From Minisyncoccota bacterium (lineage in GTDB: Bacteria; Patescibacteriota; Minisyncoccia; Phycocordibacterales; Phycocordibacteraceae): DNA of 64,000 bases. The notes below the pieces were generated by a model. It did not search any database. It was not told where the DNA came from and saw only the letters and a program-made list of their open reading frames with translations. The stretch covers positions 3,877-67,876 of the forward strand of contig DASPLK010000005.1 of the NCBI GenBank assembly GCA_035627595.1, read 5' to 3'. Positions 5,674 to 43,684 of this stretch are shown one piece after another. How positions within the stretch are numbered: the stretch's first letter is position 1; each line of letters begins with the position of its first letter. The translations under genes and the position numbers were made by a program.

Positions 5674-7890
5674 ATGGACGAGAAATTCCTCAAGCCGTAC
5701 GACCCTCAGTCGACCGAGCCCCGCATCTATTCTGAATGGGAGAAAAGTGGCTTTTTTAATCCGGATACCTGTGTCGAAGGAGGTCACACCGCCCCGGACG
5801 CTGCCCCGTATTCCATCATCCTTCCGCCCCCGAACGTCACCGGACGCCTCCATATGGGACATGCACTCATGCTCGCCATTGAGGATACCCTGATCCGCTA
5901 CAAGCGCATGCAGGGCCTCCGCACCCTCTGGCTTCCGGGCACCGACCACGCCGCAATCGCTACCCAGTCGGTGGTTGAAAAGCAGATACAGAAGGCCGAG
6001 GGCAAGTCCCGCCATGATCTCGGGCGCGAAGAACTTTTGAAGCGCATCGGAGAGTTTGCGAAGGAGAGCCATGACACTATCGTCAACCAGGTGAAGACCA
6101 TGGGCGCCTCCCTCGACTGGTCCCGCGAGGTATTCACTCTCGACGAAGAGCGCAGTTATGCAGTGCGTACCATGTTCAAGAATATGTATGAGGCAGGGCT
6201 TATCTACCGCGGTCATCGCATTGTGAACTGGGATCCAAAGGGTCAGACCACTATTTCAGATGATGAAATCGTTCACGAAGAGCGCAAGGCAAAGCTCTAC
6301 ACCTTTAGATATGCAAAGGATTTCCCTATTGCCATCTCCACCACGCGCCCAGAGACCAAGGTCGGCGATACCGCAGTCGCGGTGCATCCGGACGATCCGC
6401 GATACAAGGAGTATGTGGGCGAAGAATATTCGTTCACATTCTGTGACGTGCCAGTATCCGTAAAGATTGTCGCAGATCCAGAAGTGGATCCTGCGTTTGG
6501 TACTGGTGCGCTTGGCGTCACACCCGCACACTCTCAGACTGACTGGGAGATTGCTGATCGTCACGACCTACCCCGCCCCCAGGTCATTAATGAATACGCG
6601 AAAATGACCGTGGAAGGTCGCCTTAACAACAAGAAGACCACCGAAGCGCGCGACATGGTCGTTGAGTGGCTTGCGGAAGAAGGTCTTCTTGAGAAAGAAG
6701 AAGAGATATCCCAAAATATCTCTACCGCTGAGAGGACCGGCGGCATTATTGAACCCCTGCCTAAATTGCAGTGGTTTATCGCGGTCAATAAGCCGTTTGC
6801 GCTCCGACACTCCAAGATCCCGGGTATACAGGCTGGGGAGGATACTTCGCTACGCGACATCATGCACAAAGCAGTCTCCCCTGAAGGCATCACTGTGATG
6901 CCAGAGCACGCGGAGAAGACCTATTTCCACTGGGTCGAGAATCTGCGTGATTGGTGCATCAGCCGACAGATCTGGTACGGGCATCGCATTCCTGTTTGGT
7001 ACCGAGGCGAAGAGATGTACGTTGGTGTTGAAGCGCCAGAGGGTGAAGGATGGGAGCAGGATTCAGACACGCTCGACACCTGGTTCTCCTCAGGTCTTTG
7101 GACCTTCTCCACCATGGGCTGGCCAAAAGCATGGAACGACCAGACAGGTGAAGCAGAGCAGGGTTCGGACCTAGCTATCTGGCGACCCACCGACGTCCTT
7201 GAGACCGGATACGACATCTTGTTCTTCTGGGTAGCGCGCATGATTCTCATGACCGGGTTTGCGCTTGGTGAACTTCCCTTCAAGCGTGTATACCTGCACG
7301 GCCTCGTGCGCGACGCTCAGGGACGCAAGATGAGCAAGTCTCTGGGCAACAACATGGATCCTCTTGAGGTGACCGCGAAGTACGGTGCAGATGCCGCACG
7401 CATGGCACTTATCGTCGGCAACACGCCAGGCACCGACATGCGCATCAGCGAGGACAAGATCAAGGGCTACAAGCACTTTGCAAACAAGCTCTGGAACATC
7501 GCGCGCTTTATCTTCGAGAACACAGAGGACGCAGATGTAGCTGCTCCGCTCACTGAGACAGATACTGCACTCCGTGCAGAATTGGATACGCTCGCAACGG
7601 AAGTTACGCAGGACCTTGAGGCGTACCGCATCTACCTGGCCGCAGAAAAGCTCTATCACTACGCCTGGGACCGGCTAGCTGCAGAGTTGATCGAGGAATC
7701 TAAGAGTATTTTCCAAGGCACAGACGAAGCAGCGAAGGCATCCCGCAAGGCGGTGCTGCTCTCCATCCTTACGGACCTCTTGAAGCTTCTTCACCCGTTC
7801 ATGCCATTTGTCACCGAGGAGATCTGGAAGAGCATCGACCCTTCTACCCCGCTCATGGTCACCCGCTGGCCTGCTAGAATAGAGGGGTGA
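5674..7890 (+). CDS. valS: valine--tRNA ligase (short form lacking the C-terminal coiled coil)
   Basis: HMGH (PPPNVTGRLHMGHAL) and KMSKS motifs are present, with editing and anticodon-binding regions. Length is 738 aa. Confidence 0.95.
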   Translation: MDEKFLKPYDPQSTEPRIYSEWEKSGFFNPDTCVEGGHTAPDAAPYSIILPPPNVTGRLHMGHALMLAIEDTLIRYKRMQGLRTLWLPGTDHAAIATQSVVEKQIQKAEGKSRHDLGREELLKRIGEFAKESHDTIVNQVKTMGASLDWSREVFTLDEERSYAVRTMFKNMYEAGLIYRGHRIVNWDPKGQTTISDDEIVHEERKAKLYTFRYAKDFPIAISTTRPETKVGDTAVAVHPDDPRYKEYVGEEYSFTFCDVPVSVKIVADPEVDPAFGTGALGVTPAHSQTDWEIADRHDLPRPQVINEYAKMTVEGRLNNKKTTEARDMVVEWLAEEGLLEKEEEISQNISTAERTGGIIEPLPKLQWFIAVNKPFALRHSKIPGIQAGEDTSLRDIMHKAVSPEGITVMPEHAEKTYFHWVENLRDWCISRQIWYGHRIPVWYRGEEMYVGVEAPEGEGWEQDSDTLDTWFSSGLWTFSTMGWPKAWNDQTGEAEQGSDLAIWRPTDVLETGYDILFFWVARMILMTGFALGELPFKRVYLHGLVRDAQGRKMSKSLGNNMDPLEVTAKYGADAARMALIVGNTPGTDMRISEDKIKGYKHFANKLWNIARFIFENTEDADVAAPLTETDTALRAELDTLATEVTQDLEAYRIYLAAEKLYHYAWDRLAAELIEESKSIFQGTDEAAKASRKAVLLSILTDLLKLLHPFMPFVTEEIWKSIDPSTPLMVTRWPARIEG

Positions 7891-8606
7891 TCGAGTCTAT
7901 TCCACTAGAAACCATAGGATTCGCCTTCCTCGGAGGCGTGCTTCCCGTTTGGCTCTGGCTCCACTTTCTTCTGAAGGAGGATGCGCGCTGTCCGGAGCCG
8001 CGCTCCATGATTATTGTCGCCTTCGTCGCCGGCATGCTCTCTGTCGTCGCATCGCTCCCGCTTGAGACCTGGGTCGCCTCATTCCTTCCAAGCGGTAGCC
8101 TCGCCATCATCATTGCCTGGTCAGCAATTGAGGAGTCCATGAAGTATCTTTTGGCGGCGCTACTGGTACTGTGGCGACGCGCAGTCAACGAGACTGTAGA
8201 CCTCGTCATCTACATGATTACGGTTGCACTCGGATTCGCGGCTCTGGAAAATACACTTTTCTTGCTTGGTCCGTTTGCAGAGGGTCGCATTCTCGATGGA
8301 CTTGCGCTCAACAATTTGCGCTTTGTCGGTGCAACACTATTGCACGTAGTTGCGTCTGCGATGATCGGTTTCGCACTTGCAGCAGCATACGTTCGCGGTC
8401 GCAGCGTACGTCTTCTTTTTGTTTCAGTCGGACTTATCCTTGCGATTGCATTGCATGCCTTGTTTAATTTCCTTATAATCGCACCAGATGGCTCGCAAAC
8501 GCTTACAGCGTTCTTCCTCGTCTGGACGGGTGCCATCGTGTTTTTCGCACTGTTCGAGATACTGAAATATTTCCGGTATCGCCACTTACCAAAGAACACT
8601 TGCTGA
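7887..8606 (+). CDS. PrsW-family intramembrane metalloprotease
   Basis: A multi-TM protein carrying an EExxK motif (SAIEESMKYL) and FxxxH/H motifs (FVGATLLHVVASAMIGF). The GTG start overlaps the valS stop (GTGA). Confidence 0.6.
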   Translation: MIESIPLETIGFAFLGGVLPVWLWLHFLLKEDARCPEPRSMIIVAFVAGMLSVVASLPLETWVASFLPSGSLAIIIAWSAIEESMKYLLAALLVLWRRAVNETVDLVIYMITVALGFAALENTLFLLGPFAEGRILDGLALNNLRFVGATLLHVVASAMIGFALAAAYVRGRSVRLLFVSVGLILAIALHALFNFLIIAPDGSQTLTAFFLVWTGAIVFFALFEILKYFRYRHLPKNTC

Positions 8607-8613
8607 TCGTCTT

Positions 8614-9117
8614 ATGAAAAAGCGCTCCATCTTCGAACGTCTTTCCGGCACCGTCTCGGCCGCTGATGACTACGACTCATTCGACGACGAGTATCAGGCA
8701 CCCGCGCCGGTACGTCGTATGGCGCCGAGCGCCAGCGCTCCCGCTCGTCCTGCCATACAGGAACAATTTGAAGAGGAGCCGGTTGAGAGCGGCCAGCTCC
8801 CGGTTGATATGTACCAGACACCCAACGAGATAGTTATTCGCACGTTCATCGCGGGTGTTAGGCCTGACGAGATTAACGTATCTATAAGTCGCGACATGGT
8901 GGTGCTTGAAGGTTCACGCGCGACGGCGGAGAGCGTCTCTGATTCGGACTATTTCCACCAGGAGCTCTTCTGGGGCTCGTTTGCCCGTACGATCCTTCTT
9001 CCCCAGGAAGTAGATGTAGATGGCGCTACCGCAGGCGCAAAGGATGGACTTCTCACCTTGGTATTGCCGAAGCTGGATAAGGCACGGCAGACTAAGTTGC
9101 GCGTCAAAGCAGGATAG
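8614..9117 (+). CDS. Hsp20/alpha-crystallin family small heat-shock protein
   Basis: It has an alpha-crystallin domain (VDMYQTPNEIVIRTFIAGV...GLLTLVLPK) and a disordered N-terminus. Confidence 0.85.
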   Translation: MKKRSIFERLSGTVSAADDYDSFDDEYQAPAPVRRMAPSASAPARPAIQEQFEEEPVESGQLPVDMYQTPNEIVIRTFIAGVRPDEINVSISRDMVVLEGSRATAESVSDSDYFHQELFWGSFARTILLPQEVDVDGATAGAKDGLLTLVLPKLDKARQTKLRVKAG

Positions 9118-19242: not shown

Positions 19243-19320
19243 ACGTATATATGAATGCCCTTGTTAATGTCTATCAGTATAGCGCATGGCAGTTTTATGA
19301 AGTTTTCCCCGGTGGATACG

Positions 19321-19351
19321 AAAACACCCGCCTTAAAAAGGCGGGTGTTTT
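19321..19351 (-). terminator. intrinsic terminator of rnpB
   Basis: AAAACACCCGCC(TTAAAAA)GGCGGGTGTTTT is a perfect 12-bp stem followed by a U-run in the minus-strand RNA. Confidence 0.75.
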
Positions 19352-19359
19352 CATGTTCG

Positions 19360-19681
19360 AGACCGGTCCGATAAGCCGAATTCTGTACTCCTTGCGGAGT
19401 GACGACCATCTATCTGGGACCCCGGTTACCCGAGGCCTCAAGCGGCGCTCCCTCAAAAGAGGGCACGGCCTTGCACAGAGGTAAGGATTTAGCCGTTTCA
19501 TTCCTGCCTTCCAGCAGGCCTCATCCCAAGGGGATGCCTTTGGCTTTCGCCTCCGGCGTTTCTGCTCGCACCTCGCGGATCGCTCCGTGCGGGGGTTACC
19601 CGCTACCCTGCTGCTTGTTTCCAAGCCTGTGTTCGGACTTTCCTCTAGCTAACAAGTAGCCAGCGGTCGTCTGGACCGGTA
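19360..19681 (-). ncRNA. rnpB: RNase P RNA (bacterial type A)
   Basis: The minus-strand RNA starts ACCGGUCCAGACGACCGCUGGCUACUUGUUAGCUAGAGGAAAGUCCGAACAC, which contains the P4 5' strand. It includes AGCAGGGUAGCGGGUAACC, AGCAGAAACGCC and CCAGAUAGAUGG, and ends ACAGAAUUCGGCUUAUCGGACCGGUCUCGAAC (P4 3' strand with P1 pairing). The ends are approximate to within ±3 nt. Confidence 0.8.
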
Positions 19682-19745
19682 TATGCATTATACCATAATG
19701 AGAAAGAGCTGCCAACGCAGCTCTTTCTCTGGCACAGACCTTGAA

Positions 19746-23187: not shown

Positions 23188-24075
23188 TTAGCGCCCAAGT
23201 AGTGCGGCTACGCGCTCTTCCACCGGAGGATGTGTCGCAAATAGTCTATTCACGAACTTCCCTGCTGTAGCTCCAAACGGATTGGCAATGAAGAGGTGCG
23301 CGGTCGCATGATTCGCGCTTTGCATGGGCCGGTTGTATCCCGCGATCTTTTGAAGTGCAGAAGCAAGGCCTTCTGGGTACCGAGTCAAAAGCGCACCTGA
23401 GGCATCTGCGAGGAATTCGCGGCGCCTGGAAACCGCAAGCTGTATCAACTGGGCTGCAATAGGCGCAAGAATGATGCCGACTACCGCAAGGATAAGGAAG
23501 AGCACGTTGCCTTTTCCGTTGTCACGATTGCCACCCCCAAATAGCGACATGCGCAGGAAGATGTCAGCGACAATTGCGATGAAGCCCGCAAGCACCACGG
23601 CGACCGTCATGACGAGCATGTCGCGATTCTTGATGTGGGAGAGTTCATGTGCAATGACACCCTCCAATTCCTGGCGGTTCATCATGGCAAGAAGGCCTGT
23701 AGTCGCGGCGACAACCGCATGTTTCTCGTTACGGCCGGTCGCAAACGCGTTCGGTGCTGGGTCGTCGATAACGTAGAGCTTGGGCATTGGAAGACCTGAG
23801 GCAATAGAGAGGTTCTCCGTAACCGTGTAGAGATCAAAGTATTCCTCGCGGGTCGCGGGCTTCGCCTTGGTCATCGAAAGCACGACCTTATCGCTGAACC
23901 AGTACGCCCAGAAGTTCATCAGGATGGAGATGCCAACCGCAACATAAAGGATAATGGGACTGTCGTAATACCAGGAGATTCCCCAACCGATCGCGATAAC
24001 CAGGAGGAAGAACCCGAGCATAAGGCCCCAGGTCTTCCACACATTCTCTGAGCGTTCTTGGTAGAGCGTTGCCAT
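23188..24075 (-). CDS. htpX: zinc metalloprotease HtpX (M48 family)
   Basis: HELSHIKNRD zinc-binding motif, four TM helices, 295 aa. Confidence 0.9.
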   Translation of the reverse strand: MATLYQERSENVWKTWGLMLGFFLLVIAIGWGISWYYDSPIILYVAVGISILMNFWAYWFSDKVVLSMTKAKPATREEYFDLYTVTENLSIASGLPMPKLYVIDDPAPNAFATGRNEKHAVVAATTGLLAMMNRQELEGVIAHELSHIKNRDMLVMTVAVVLAGFIAIVADIFLRMSLFGGGNRDNGKGNVLFLILAVVGIILAPIAAQLIQLAVSRRREFLADASGALLTRYPEGLASALQKIAGYNRPMQSANHATAHLFIANPFGATAGKFVNRLFATHPPVEERVAALLGR

Positions 24076-24094
24076 ATCTTATATAGACGAGTTA

Positions 24095-24415
24095 CTACGC
24101 ACTTTCCTTCTTTTCGAACCGATCTTTGTCGCGAGTGCGACATTTCTCCATCACCGTCTTGAATTCTTCATCTAGATCGATGCCTTGTGCATTTGCAAGA
24201 CACATTGCCGTAAAGATGACGTCCATGAGCTCTTTGCCGAGCTCTTGCCGCGCTTCCTCCTCCTTCTTCGGCTTATCGCCGTAAAGATGGTTTAAGAGGC
24301 GACCGAGCTCACCCACCTCTTCCGCGAGCCGCGCAAACTGTGACAGAGGCGACCAATACGGGACCTTGTACTCCTGAACCCAGGAGTCTATCTCTTTCTG
24401 CGCGTCTTTTAGCAT
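24095..24415 (-). CDS. MazG-like nucleotide pyrophosphohydrolase (small all-alpha NTP-PPase)
   Basis: 106 aa with EEVGELGRLLNHLYG and ELMDVIFTAMCLANAQGIDLDEEF motifs. Confidence 0.65.
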   Translation of the reverse strand: MLKDAQKEIDSWVQEYKVPYWSPLSQFARLAEEVGELGRLLNHLYGDKPKKEEEARQELGKELMDVIFTAMCLANAQGIDLDEEFKTVMEKCRTRDKDRFEKKESA

Positions 24416-24419
24416 GGAG

Positions 24420-24980
24420 TTAGAACGCGACCTTCACCGGCTCGCGTGCTGCAGCTTCTGCCTCTGTAAGCTCGAAGAGATCCATCTGCTTGAAGGAGAA
24501 CATACCGCCCACGATGTTGCCTGGGAACTGCTCTAGGCCCGTATTAAGCGCCATGACGTTCTGGTTGTAGAAGCGGCGGGCTGCCTGGATCTTGTCCTCG
24601 GTGTTCGCAAGCTCCTTCTGAAGCTCGAGGAAGTTCGCATTGGCCTTAAGGTCCGGGTACGCCTCGGCGACCGCGAAGATACTCTTCAAGGCGCCCGTGA
24701 GCATGTTCTCGGCTTCCGCATGTTCGTCTACCGACTGCGCGCCCATAGCGGCAGCGCGTGCCTTGGTGACGTTCTCAAATGCCTGGCTCTCATGCGTTGC
24801 GTAGCCCTTCACAGTCTCCACGAGATTCGGGATGAGGTCGTAGCGGCGCTTCATCTGCACCTCGATATCGGACCATGCTTCTTTGGCGCGATTAATGAGC
24901 GCAACAAAGTGATTGTAGCTAAAGATTACCCAGAACACGAGTACGGCGAGGATGCCGAGGACGATGTATAGGATGGTCAT
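24420..24980 (-). CDS. lemA: LemA family protein
   Basis: 186 aa with an N-terminal TM helix. Canonical LemA-HtpX adjacency. Confidence 0.8.
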   Translation of the reverse strand: MTILYIVLGILAVLVFWVIFSYNHFVALINRAKEAWSDIEVQMKRRYDLIPNLVETVKGYATHESQAFENVTKARAAAMGAQSVDEHAEAENMLTGALKSIFAVAEAYPDLKANANFLELQKELANTEDKIQAARRFYNQNVMALNTGLEQFPGNIVGGMFSFKQMDLFELTEAEAAAREPVKVAF

Positions 24981-25000
24981 ATACCTATAGTGTATGAAGT

Positions 25001-25040
25001 CTCAACATAAACACAAGAGCCGCCTATAGGCGGCTCTTGT
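25001..25040 (-). terminator. intrinsic terminator of groEL
   Basis: ACAAGAGCCGCC(TATAG)GCGGCTCTTGT is followed by GUUUAUGUU in the minus-strand RNA. Confidence 0.7.
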
Positions 25041-25059
25041 GTTACCCGATGTTCTTACA

Positions 25060-27020
<1,961 letters not shown>

Positions 27021-27028
27021 AGCAATGA

Positions 27029-27054
27029 AAAAGCTAGCTTTTGATAAAAGCTTT
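27029..27054. promoter_or_regulatory. array of inverted AAAAGCT half-sites in the groES 5' leader (non-CIRCE operator candidate)
   Basis: AAAAGCT|AGCTTTT is a 14-bp perfect palindrome (27029-27042). It is followed by GAT AAAAGCT TT, so AGCTTTTGATAAAAGCT (27036-27052) forms a second 7-3-7 inverted repeat. This lies 9-34 nt upstream of the groES ATG. Confidence 0.45.
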
Positions 27055-27103
27055 GGGTTTGAAGTCACCCATGCCAACGCAGTATGCGCTAGCGGTAGCT
27101 ATA

Positions 27104-27131
27104 AGTATATGAAGAGCGATAGTTGGGTCAA
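27104..27131 (-). promoter_or_regulatory. putative sigma-70-type promoter of groES-groEL
   Basis: The minus strand reads TTGACC-16nt-TATACT about 85 nt upstream of the groES ATG. Confidence 0.45.
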
Positions 27132-27141
27132 GATGCGATAC

Positions 27142-27170
27142 TTGACATTTGTCCATTTATTATGCAATAT
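27142..27170 (+). promoter_or_regulatory. putative promoter of the divergent small ORF (TTGACA-17-CAATAT)
   Basis: TTGACA lies at 27142-27147 with CAATAT at 27165-27170. The implied leader (~125 nt) is long, so this is uncertain. Confidence 0.3.
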
Positions 27171-27201: not shown

Positions 27202-27594
27202 ATGCGCGAGTTCTTTATGGCTATGGTCGTATCCACTAGCTTCCTGGCTGCCCTGGCGACCATACGCCAATACCTTCGAGTGCGGGATATGGAGGTGCGA
27301 CTGAATCCCGCATGGCTGGAAAGACTTCCCGCATCCTCGCAGGAATATCTGCGGAGTGGGGAAAAGTTTAGGCTGCAGCTACAAAGGCTGTCGCTACCCT
27401 ACTTTCCGATCTATGTTTCGTTCATCGTTTCTGCGGCCGCGCTGCTTCAGAGCTTCAAGCTTGATCCGATCTGGTTCTACGCCTGCGCACTTGGAATATC
27501 GCTCAACTTCCTCAGGAAGTTCGGCCGTATTACCAGCGAGATGATTGAGGAGCTGGAAGAAGACGAGTACACGGCCCGCCAGTACCGCAACTGA
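27202..27594 (+). CDS. small membrane protein, hypothetical (130 aa)
   Basis: GGAG-7nt-ATG start with two TM helices. It is followed by a strong intrinsic terminator. The long overlapping track ORF 26761..27594 was rejected. Confidence 0.55.
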   Translation: MREFFMAMVVSTSFLAALATIRQYLRVRDMEVRLNPAWLERLPASSQEYLRSGEKFRLQLQRLSLPYFPIYVSFIVSAAALLQSFKLDPIWFYACALGISLNFLRKFGRITSEMIEELEEDEYTARQYRN

Positions 27595-29727: not shown

Positions 29728-31647
29728 ATGTCAGCAGCACCTGCGCCGGCACCGGCGCCACAGAACTCCCCCGCTCCCCATTCCTCAAATCCACGCCCTG
29801 AGGGCAAGCCTCGCTCCCGTGGAGGTCGTGCTCGCAGCGGCGAACGACGCAGCGGGCCCAATCCGCGCGGTGGACGTGGAAGCCGTCAAATGCGCCGGCC
29901 TATGCACCGCCCAGGCGGCCCTTCTCAGATGACCGGACAGAAGCGCGCGGCCGACTACAACCCGGCAGATCCGGGCGCTAACGTTGTCCGCATCGTTCCT
30001 CTAGGCGGCGTTGAGGAAGTGGGACGCAACATGTTTTGCGTCGATACCAACGGCGACATCTTCGTCTTTGACGTGGGCTTCCAGTTCACGAGCGAGGATG
30101 AGACCCCGGGAGTCGACTATGTCCTCCCGAATACCAAGTACCTCGAGATGAACCAGCACCGGGTGCGTGCCGTGTTCATCACGCACGGTCACCTGGACCA
30201 TATCGGCGGCATTCCCTTCCTTATGAACCGCTTCGGCAATCCCCCTATCTACACGCAGAATCTTTCTGCGGTCATGATCGCTAAGCGTCAGGAGGAGTAC
30301 CCGGATATGCCTAAGCCAAACCTTGTCGTGGTCGAACCAGGTTCGACCCACACCATCGGCAGCACGAGGGTTCACTTCTTCCCCGTGACGCATTCGATTC
30401 CAGACTCGATGGGTATCGCTGTCGAGACGCCATACGGCAACGTCATCGCAACGGGCGACCTCAAGGTCGACCACCATGATGAGGTCATCACCCCTGCAGA
30501 GGTAAAGAAGTGGGGCGAGCTCGGCAAGCAGAAGAACCTTCTCTTTATTGCCGACTCCACCAACGCTGAGATCGCCGGATTCTCCGTCCCGGAGCGCAAA
30601 GTCCACGAGACGCTTGAAGAGATTTTGAAGACGGTGAAGGGACGCCTCATCATCGGCACCTTCGCATCGCAGTTCGAGCGCATGATCAAGATCATCGAGA
30701 TGGCCGAGCACCATGGCAAGAAGATCATCATGGAGGGACGGTCTATCAAGACTAACCTTGAGATCGCGCAGAAAACCGGCCTCCTTACCGTTAAGAAGGA
30801 AACCTTCATCAGCGCGCAGGAAATCGGCGACTACTCTCCCGATAAGATTGTCATCCTCGCGACCGGTGCGCAGGGTGAGGAGTTTGCTGCGCTCATGCGC
30901 ATGTCGACGAAGCAGCACAAACACATCACGCTTAATGAGCGTGATACGGTAGTGCTCTCCTCCTCGGTTATTCCGGGCAATGAGCTATCGGTCCAGAAGC
31001 TGAAAGACAACCTCTTCCGCAGCAAGGCGACTCTCATTCATTACCGCACCAGTGACGTGCACTCCGGCGGCCACGGCCGCGCAGGCGAGCTCGTCTGGAT
31101 CAATCAGCAGGTGAACTCGGCGTTCTTCATGCCGGCGTACGGCTACTACTCGATGACCGCATCGCATGCTAAGGCAGTCGAGCAAGCAGGCAGGCCACGA
31201 GAATCAATCATCCTTGCTGAGAACGGCATGGTCATTGATATCATCGACGGCGAGCGATACGAAGTTCATAAGGACAAGGTCCCGTCCGCTCCCCTAATTG
31301 TGGACGGCTTCGCAATCGGCGACATGCAGGAAGTAGTCATCCGCGATCGCCAGATGCTTGCTAAGGATGGTATGTTCGTCATCATCGCGACGGTTAACCT
31401 AAAGACAGGAAAGCTTCGCAAGTCCCCCGACATCATTTCCCGCGGTTTCGTATATCTCAGGGAATCGCAGGACATGCTGAACGAGGCGCGTCTTCTCATC
31501 AAGAAGACGGTTGAGGATTCGACAAAGGGCATGAACCCGGTCGACCTCGACTACGTGAAGAACCAGCTCTCCGATACGGTTGCCGGCTTCCTCTTCTCGA
31601 GGACCAACAAGGCACCGATGGTGATTCCGGTCCTGATTGGCGTCTAA
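29728..31647 (+). CDS. rnj: ribonuclease J (metallo-beta-lactamase/beta-CASP) with a ~95-aa Arg/Gly/Pro-rich N-terminal extension
   Basis: HGHLDHIGG motif, beta-CASP and C-terminal domain. The N-terminus is low-complexity (PRSRGGRARSGERRSGPNPRGGRGSRQMRRP). Confidence 0.9.
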   Translation: MSAAPAPAPAPQNSPAPHSSNPRPEGKPRSRGGRARSGERRSGPNPRGGRGSRQMRRPMHRPGGPSQMTGQKRAADYNPADPGANVVRIVPLGGVEEVGRNMFCVDTNGDIFVFDVGFQFTSEDETPGVDYVLPNTKYLEMNQHRVRAVFITHGHLDHIGGIPFLMNRFGNPPIYTQNLSAVMIAKRQEEYPDMPKPNLVVVEPGSTHTIGSTRVHFFPVTHSIPDSMGIAVETPYGNVIATGDLKVDHHDEVITPAEVKKWGELGKQKNLLFIADSTNAEIAGFSVPERKVHETLEEILKTVKGRLIIGTFASQFERMIKIIEMAEHHGKKIIMEGRSIKTNLEIAQKTGLLTVKKETFISAQEIGDYSPDKIVILATGAQGEEFAALMRMSTKQHKHITLNERDTVVLSSSVIPGNELSVQKLKDNLFRSKATLIHYRTSDVHSGGHGRAGELVWINQQVNSAFFMPAYGYYSMTASHAKAVEQAGRPRESIILAENGMVIDIIDGERYEVHKDKVPSAPLIVDGFAIGDMQEVVIRDRQMLAKDGMFVIIATVNLKTGKLRKSPDIISRGFVYLRESQDMLNEARLLIKKTVEDSTKGMNPVDLDYVKNQLSDTVAGFLFSRTNKAPMVIPVLIGV

Positions 31648-43258: not shown

Positions 43259-43684
43259 CTATGCGGCTTTCTTTGTGGTTTTGGTCGCTTTCTTTGCAGA
43301 TTTCTTAACGGCTTTCTTTGCGGTGCTCCCTGCCGAATCCAGCTCTCGTCCAAGCTCCTGCCAGTTCTTCTTTAATTCTTTCGCGGCAGCCTTAAGTTCC
43401 TGGGCATCCACGTTTCTTGCGCCGACATAAGCGGCTGCGGCAGTGTCTACGATCGCAGCAACTGAGTGCTTATCCAGCTTCTTGAGCTTTTTTGTCTCCT
43501 TTAGCACATCTGCCTTCATGCCCCGCGCCCACTTGGCAGCGGCAGCGCGATGTTTCTTCGCATCCTTTGCACCATAGAAGTAGTATGTCGCCGCTGCGGC
43601 GGCACCAGCAGCAACTATTCCCGCTCCTATTTCTGCGGCAATAATCGCATCTTTGTTCTTTGTACTTCCTTTCTTTGTTGCCAT
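43259..43684 (-). CDS. Ala/Lys-rich hypothetical protein (YtxH-like?)
   Basis: 141 aa, low-complexity K/A-rich with an N-terminal hydrophobic stretch. Confidence 0.45.
   Translation of the reverse strand: MATKKGSTKNKDAIIAAEIGAGIVAAGAAAAATYYFYGAKDAKKHRAAAAKWARGMKADVLKETKKLKKLDKHSVAAIVDTAAAAYVGARNVDAQELKAAAKELKKNWQELGRELDSAGSTAKKAVKKSAKKATKTTKKAA

Follow-up and report, generated by a model that had tools for sequence, protein, structure and literature searches.

The groESL operon in the window (the whole 64-kb stretch of DNA that was analysed) is preceded by a leader whose conserved unit, as judged by comparison with related sequences, appears to be a set of three hairpins ending in a near-invariant box beside the start codon, and not an array of three half-sites. 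In kind it belongs with the cis-regulatory leaders of heat-shock operons, and its family is undescribed. The reading that we favour, with a probability of about one half, is that the leader acts at the RNA level, as a module for the initiation and control of translation on a leadered mRNA without a Shine-Dalgarno sequence.

The groESL operon and the repeat array

Both genes are encoded on the minus strand: groES at 26709..27020 (103 aa; P0001 is 100% identical, PF00166) and groEL at 25060..26694 (544 aa). They are separated by a pyrimidine-rich spacer of 14 nt without a Shine-Dalgarno sequence, and a terminator-like hairpin followed by TTTAT was read from the sequence 3' of groEL (25011..25042, minus strand). 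A motif scan identified the groES -35 box TTGACC at 27126..27131 and the -10 box TATACT at 27104..27109, both on the minus strand, with 10/12 positions matched; the sense strand of the upstream region reads TTGACC-16-TATACT tatagctaCCGCTAGCGCAtacTGCGTTGGcaTGGGTgacttcaaACCCAaAGCTTTTatcAAAAGCTAGCTTTTTcattgctATG. In relatives the -35 box is CTTGACC or CTTGATT, 16–17 nt from the -10 box in 19/19 close relatives, and the -10 box is TATACT or TATAAT. The promoter proposed in the preliminary description is thereby confirmed. The placement of the repeat between this promoter and the groES ATG also stands, with the start codon itself at 27020-27018 on the minus strand rather than at 27021.

The same intergenic region serves a divergent gene for a small protein of 130 aa (27202..27594, plus strand), as had been described, with its own -35 box TTGACA at 27143..27148 (plus strand) lying back to back with that of groES. 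Hydrophobic stretches seen by eye suggest a membrane protein, and the Pfam search returned no match for it. A GTCAAx-N8-10-CTTGAC pair is present in most relatives; the back-to-back boxes of the window (27126-27148, TGTCAAG-N9-CTTGACC) have counterparts there despite divergent small proteins that are not homologous. The divergent neighbours share 11–25% identity with no clear homology, and the small protein was accordingly rejected as a conserved partner or regulator.

Positions 27029-27054 of the plus strand read AAAAGCTAGCTTTTGATAAAAGCTTT. AAAAGCT occurs here three times, at 27029-27035 (+), 27036-27042 (-) and 27046-27052 (+), and the three alternating copies with two overlapping inverted repeats reported earlier are exact at 27029-27052. 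Two of the copies form a perfect 14-bp DNA palindrome, AAAAGCTAGCTTTT (27029..27042), which in most relatives is 10 bp long (AAGCTAGCTT), and 27036-27052 forms an inverted repeat whose 7-bp arms are 3 nt apart. The arrangement AAAAGCT-N0-6-AGCTTTT is found once in the window and in 0/100 dinucleotide shuffles. The heptamer itself, with 9 copies in the window against 7.3 expected, is not over-represented, so the clustering is the non-random part. A second GCTAGC at 27088-27093, within the first hairpin of the leader, gives rise to an 18-nt imperfect direct repeat detected by a repeat finder; it is shared by the window, L081 and L083 only and, not being conserved, is probably incidental.

Search for known heat-shock control elements

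The CIRCE inverted repeat (TTAGCACTC-N9-GAGTGCTAA) was sought over the whole 64 kb with up to 3 mismatches and gave no match. As a positive control, the same search target is present in L053, a more distant GroES relative (64% identity) in a record labelled Gammaproteobacteria, where a canonical AGCACTC-N9-GAGTGCT follows the -10 box and precedes the groES start (L053:2944-2966); no hrcA was found in the 3 kb upstream of this CIRCE-bearing groES. For HAIR (CTTGAGT-N7-ACTCAAG) there were 2 matches at 3 mismatches in the window, which corresponds to chance level, and none in the groES leader. The earlier statement that groES carries neither CIRCE nor HAIR is thus borne out. The CtsR box (RGTCAAA-NAN-RGTCAAA) gave a single match in the window at 3 mismatches, at 43481, below chance level. 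The GTCAAG/CTTGAC pair at 27126-27148 is inverted and corresponds to the two -35 boxes.

A Pfam scan of the approximately 65 window proteins returned no HrcA (PF01628), HspR/MerR-type regulator, CtsR or sigma factor. In the groES leader, Rfam gave no match at E-values up to 10, RNA thermometers (ROSE, FourU etc.) included; across the window only tRNAs and RNase P RNA passed the gathering score. The RNase P RNA is of class A (124 bits; 19356-19682, minus strand), and an overlapping ORF of 109 aa (19295-19624) is probably spurious.

The leader in related genomes

From genome and metagenome collections, and from contigs encoding close GroES homologues, 179 loci were gathered. By its GroES homologues the window, from an uncultivated bacterium, belongs to Patescibacteria/Paceibacterota (Kaiserbacteria-like metagenome-assembled genomes). 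Sixteen distinct leaders, that of the window included, share a common architecture, with GroES proteins 76–93% identical to that of the window (the window, L081, L082, L083, L084/L004/L166, L167/168, L163/173/174, L170/171, L175, L176, L177-179, L003, L001, L002, L165 and L161/162). From the 5' side, the order is CTTGACC-16/17-TATAMT, a hairpin P1 a few nucleotides after the predicted transcription start, and a second hairpin P2 of the form GGG...CCC. There follow AAGCUUUUA (site 1), a loop of 3–8 nt and RGAAGCU or GAGCU (site 2), sites 1 and 2 forming a third hairpin, P3, and then AGCUUUUU (site 3) and CAU-N3-5-AUG. The leader as a whole folds better than its shuffles (z = -3.2), its whole-structure covariation score was reached by 0/500 shuffles, and 82% of cells are paired in the leader structure compared with 34–46% in slid controls.

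The perfect triple AAAAGCT repeat is a property of this genome only. In all relatives the middle copy (site 2) has one or two of its A's replaced by G, giving RGAAGCT or GAGCT, and the first copy (site 1) is degenerate (AGCTCTT, GGCTTT, TGCTTAT, CGCTCTT), with a spacing of 11–14 nt between the two sites. Near-invariance across the relatives is limited to GCTAGCTTTTT. The proposal of a triple half-site operator is weakened by these differences: the operator for a dimeric regulator suggested in the preliminary description loses its three-half-site form, and a simple dimeric operator on AAGCTAGCTT is kept as a tentative reading. Its alternative suggestion of a structured RNA leader gains support from the covariation of P1 and P2 in relatives and from the folding of the leader.

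A covariance model of the leader (R1) matches groES leaders only, with weak matches at the groES of more distant clades. The expected conservation upstream of groES was found for the core of the motif, and the expected recurrence at other heat-shock promoters was not, with no further occurrence at hsp20, htpX or elsewhere in the window. Two loci, L164 and L172, have no box although their GroES is 85–86% identical to that of the window, which indicates that the box is dispensable or replaceable. The groESL leader appears from these comparisons to be clade-specific and evolutionarily labile.

The near-invariant box

The box GCUAGCUUUUU (27028..27038, minus strand) comprises the end of site 2 together with site 3, was defined by invariant alignment columns and lies 12 nt before the AUG. 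Its first nine bases, GCTAGCTTT, are present in 14/16 distinct leaders and all eleven in 12, with shorter T-runs in L165 and L161 and a variant, GCTATCTTTT, in L001/L002. In L169 the box is GCUACGCUUUCAU and the DNA palindrome is broken. A search of 943 kb of pooled related DNA found GCTAGCTTT in groES leaders only, apart from one in-gene chance match, and in the window AAGCTAGCTT has 1 copy at up to 1 mismatch. Since both the box and the leader model are confined to groES, the element is not one held in common with the hsp20 or htpX of the window.

The palindromic core spans 10 bp in 11/16 distinct leaders; in three others it is 8 bp long, and in L161 it is 6 bp. Its central 8–10 bp are symmetric and near-invariant and its outer positions are asymmetric, in lineages that are not independent of each other: A, G or C on the A-arm, and T on the other arm, constant in 14/16 leaders. 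The core of the AAAAGCT palindrome is, on this sequence evidence, a candidate for a new control element of heat-shock genes.

The distance from the box to the ATG is 10–13 nt, and that to the -10 box 37–70 nt. The insertions and deletions between box and ATG are not multiples of three, from which it follows that the region is not coding. Gene calls in P0004, P0010, P0011, P0014, P0017 and the window (ORF 26709-27077) extend GroES to 116–140 aa from an upstream TTG, GTG or ATG. An N-terminal extension of GroES through the leader (P0004, 140 aa; P0010, 124 aa; P0017, 122 aa) was rejected because of the box-ATG distances of 10, 11, 12 or 13 nt, and these extended calls are an annotation artefact. 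Also rejected, as not conserved, was an upstream ORF of 12 codons that in the window ends in the box (ATG GGT ... AGC TAG): L082, L083, L084 and others lack its ATG, and in L081 it runs in frame into groES. The box was also inspected by eye as a possible sigma-54 site or additional promoter and discarded, with TAGC in place of the essential TGGC and a TTGCT that is not conserved.

The three hairpins

P1 (27073..27093, minus strand) is a stem of 9 bp closed by a UAC loop, identified by folding and covariation, a few nucleotides from the predicted 5' end of the mRNA. In the alignment 97.7% of its cells are paired and 8/9 pairs show changes on both sides, with a sequence that differs between lineages; the covariation of P1 thus appears strong. 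P2 (UGGGU/ACCCA; 27054..27071, minus strand) was identified by folding and has conserved GGG and CCC. Its sequence is replaced with the hairpin kept in L163 (GAGG/CCUC) and L165 (GGCAC/GUGCC), and covariation appears to support it in part. P2 is lost in L161, where the box is still 11 nt from the ATG.

P3 (27036..27052, minus strand) is formed in both minimum free energy and centroid folds by site 1 (AGCUUUU, 27052-27046), the loop AUC and site 2 (AAAAGCU, 27042-27036). It is predicted in 14/15 box-bearing leaders that were folded, at approximately -2.6 to -4.6 kcal/mol, and the stems of L175 and L001 are weak. Changes in P3 are mostly G-U-tolerant. In L169 AGCUU/AAGCU has become GCGUU/AACGC, with three pairs changed on both sides; apart from this locus, no Watson-Crick compensatory change was found in P3. 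In the model-guided alignment 74% of its cells are paired, and the local fold is not better than that of shuffles (z = -1.3, 19/200). P3 is an AU-rich hairpin of weak predicted stability. Pairing of site 2 with site 3 as an RNA hairpin yields 0 to -2 kcal/mol across leaders (-0.4 in the window) and was rejected on that account.

The predicted mean unpaired probability of positions -18 to +6 rises from 0.52 at 10 °C to 0.55 at 45 °C, with similar values for the orthologues. As the AUG region is not sequestered and the unpaired fraction is nearly constant over this range, the predictions do not support a classical thermometer. Three other candidate features of the region were set aside: a DnaA box (TTATCAAAA) in the P3 loop, which is not conserved among relatives; base-pairing between box and AUGGC start (GCUA/UGGC, from RNAalifold), where 3–4 invariant pairs closing a loop of 13–16 nt are negligible; and long-range pairing with the groES-groEL spacer, in which CUAGC is not conserved.

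Translation starts in the window

Shine-Dalgarno-like motifs precede about 10/64 window genes. Many window genes have a TATAxT-like hexamer 5–10 nt before the ATG, a proximity that suggests leaderless mRNAs, and genes inside operons have pyrimidine-rich upstream regions; the groEL of relatives is preceded by, for example, UCCUCUAUCUAU. Within this genome, groES is thus unusual for its long leader and not for lacking a Shine-Dalgarno sequence. Close relatives use GGAGGA for some genes. The fetched loci contained no 16S rRNA with which complementarity to the leader could be sought.

The stress gene hsp20 (8614-9117, plus strand) starts 7 nt after prsW (7887-9117 for the pair, plus strand) and is without the groES motif. 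The same holds for lemA-mazG-htpX (23188-25050, minus strand), located after the terminator-like hairpin of groEL; the ATG of lemA is directly preceded by a TACACT/TATAGG sequence.

An RNA-level element or a DNA operator

In the RNA-level reading, the palindrome would be the 3' module of a conserved, structured 5' UTR of approximately 80 nt in the groESL mRNA of one Paceibacteria clade, transcribed from a promoter of sigma-70 type. P1 would shield the 5' end of the mRNA, a role suggested with the gene for RNase J (29728-31647) in mind, 3 kb from the leader. P3 and the U-rich box would make up a ribosome-loading region on an mRNA without a Shine-Dalgarno sequence, in which P3 stops the U-tract from base-pairing with the purine run of site 2. 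The single-stranded tract GCUAGCUUUUU-CAU may then be the landing or recognition site for initiation, with the box read sequence-specifically by the ribosome (S1) or by some RNA-binding factor. The 14-bp DNA palindrome would arise since AGCU, the core of every site, is self-complementary and is flanked by A's on the 5' side in site 2 and by U's on the 3' side in sites 1 and 3. We infer these roles in translation and stability, as well as any response to heat; a heat response through the AU-rich P3 is possible, but the predictions do not support one.

Several observations argue for this reading. Covariation is strong in P1, and P2 persists where its sequence has been replaced. The box is anchored to the ATG (10–13 nt) and not to the -10 box (37–70 nt). 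The variable spacing of 11–14 nt between sites 1 and 2 favours RNA, as it can be tolerated by a hairpin loop and not by a phased multi-site operator. Most substitutions in site 2 are from A to G opposite U, which keeps the pairing in the sense RNA only, and L169 has changed sites 1 and 2 together, breaking the DNA palindrome. Conservation is asymmetric, with the U-arm constant in 14/16 leaders and the A-arm variable. Shine-Dalgarno-like motifs are scarce, and in every relative the sequence around the groES and groEL starts is rich in pyrimidines. Counting against it are the weakness of P3, with 74% of its cells paired, and a start region that is predicted to be open from 10 to 45 °C. The RNA model also leaves the near-invariance of GCUAGC and the perfectly palindromic core without explanation.

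A protein bound to double-stranded DNA would explain both of these features, which makes a DNA operator a serious rival, if on balance a less probable one. Here AAGCTAGCTT, extended to 14 bp in the window (AAAAGCTAGCTTTT), would bind a dimeric repressor that has replaced HrcA-CIRCE in this clade; the bound repressor would block RNA polymerase in the leader, with AAGCTT of site 1 as an auxiliary site. The core is a perfect 10-bp palindrome in 11/16 leaders, and a conserved 10-mer is palindromic by chance in approximately 1 in 1000 cases. It contains CTAG, a step that bacterial genomes seldom use and that is characteristic of operators, those of trp and met among them; in the pooled 943 kb, GCTAGC falls short of expectation approximately 3-fold (68 sites versus about 230 expected). 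Replacement would make sense in that CIRCE is absent here and present at the same gene in the more distant L053, and CIRCE is also found in 5' untranslated regions. Nor does RNA structure account for the palindromy, since a hairpin of site 2 with site 3 is worth approximately 0 kcal/mol. Set against this, the site is about 60–70 bp downstream of the -10 box, at a distance that varies (37–70) while that to the ATG is fixed. A near-invariant centre with variable outer positions on one arm is the reverse of the usual helix-turn-helix pattern; the asymmetry of the arms is consistent across lineages, and the L169 box is recognisable even though its palindrome is broken. No second copy was found in the 64 kb (hsp20 and htpX included), estimated at about a tenth of the genome, or in 943 kb of relatives, and no regulator gene was found among the window genes.

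It is improbable that the leader is a transcription attenuator or pause site, in which P2 and P3, each followed by AGCUUUU, would be weak temperature-labile terminators or NusG-type pause hairpins that limit read-through into groES at low temperature. A loose terminator scan does flag P2 with AAGCUUUUAU, UUUUU follows P3 after 3 nt, and AU-rich stems would melt on heat shock; but the stems are of 5–7 bp with few G-C pairs, the U-run is in both cases set off from the stem by AGC or AAGC, and no alternative anti-terminator was found. Attenuation would also cripple the sole promoter of an essential, highly expressed operon and leaves the invariance of GCUAGC without explanation.

Least probable of all, and disfavoured by the conservation, is that the element has no specific function, having arisen by chance in a leader rich in A and T or as a side effect of AGCT being self-complementary. 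The uniqueness of the perfect triple repeat to this genome, the lack of enrichment of the heptamer in the window and the loss of the element in L164 and L172 would fit such an origin. It is countered by the occurrence of GCTAGCTTT at the same place in 14/16 leaders, where the loops of adjoining hairpins vary freely, and by the 0/100 shuffles in which the arrangement was reproduced.

Comparison with known leaders

Like CIRCE/HrcA, the element recognised here involves an inverted repeat in the groES 5' UTR downstream of a housekeeping-type promoter. It differs in having no sequence similarity to CIRCE and no 9-N9-9 layout: the arms abut (sites 2 and 3) or are 3 nt apart (sites 1 and 2), the element is anchored to the ATG and not to the promoter, and no hrcA was seen in the window.

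The E. coli rpsA leader has three hairpins and no Shine-Dalgarno sequence. The groES leader resembles it in its several conserved hairpins, with A/U-rich single strands between them, in the absence of a Shine-Dalgarno sequence from a highly expressed gene and in a start region that is open beside a hairpin. The two are unrelated in sequence and taxon, and no autoregulating protein is known for the groES leader; the resemblance would be one of working principle only. With the FourU and ROSE thermometers there is a shared U-run and a weak AU-rich hairpin in a heat-shock gene leader. The U's of those thermometers pair with the Shine-Dalgarno sequence or the AUG, whereas the groES leader has no Shine-Dalgarno sequence, an AUG that is predicted to be open at all temperatures and no Rfam match. 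Stabiliser hairpins at the 5' terminus are known from the ompA and aprE leaders. P1 is similarly stable, covaries and lies a few nucleotides from the predicted 5' end, with RNase J encoded nearby; this likeness covers P1 only and not the palindrome.

Other groES leaders and implications

In 23 more distant Paceibacteria, TGTGGATAAC lies directly after the groES -10 box (TATACTGTGGATAACTT), about 80–100 nt before the groES ATG (e.g. L036:2907-2916), and is followed by a variable hairpin (L020, L023, L029, L031-L033, L035-L037, L039, L041, L045, L052, L071, L094-L096, L103, L105, L106, L108, L112 and L129). Read on the other strand, this sequence is a perfect DnaA box (TTATCCACA). Being promoter-anchored and conserved, the DnaA-box-like element may represent another leader type, in which it would be an operator or a 5'-end motif. 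A third type was seen in L005-L009 and L011-L016, where TTATTCATTTATATA is conserved some 10 nt ahead of the groES ATG and the 30 nt before that ATG contain no Shine-Dalgarno sequence. At least three other leader types, namely CIRCE, DnaA-box-like and TTATTCATTTATATA, are therefore found at groES in neighbouring clades, so that control elements seem to turn over rapidly at a single essential operon.

It is conceivable, and we put it forward tentatively, that a clade of Paceibacteria has swapped HrcA-CIRCE for an undescribed leader, either a three-hairpin translational RNA with a factor-read GCUAGCUUUUU or the operator of a new heat-shock repressor, and that sister clades differ, for example in having a perfect DnaA box at the transcription start. 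Bacteria of the candidate phyla radiation possess very few regulators and cannot be cultivated on their own, and we found no literature on heat-shock regulation in this group. The conserved leader described here is confined to groESL, has no Rfam match and is positioned relative to the start codon, in a genome with hardly any Shine-Dalgarno sequences. It offers a testable handle on how chaperone synthesis is controlled in bacteria of the candidate phyla radiation, and on how translation starts on their leadered mRNAs.
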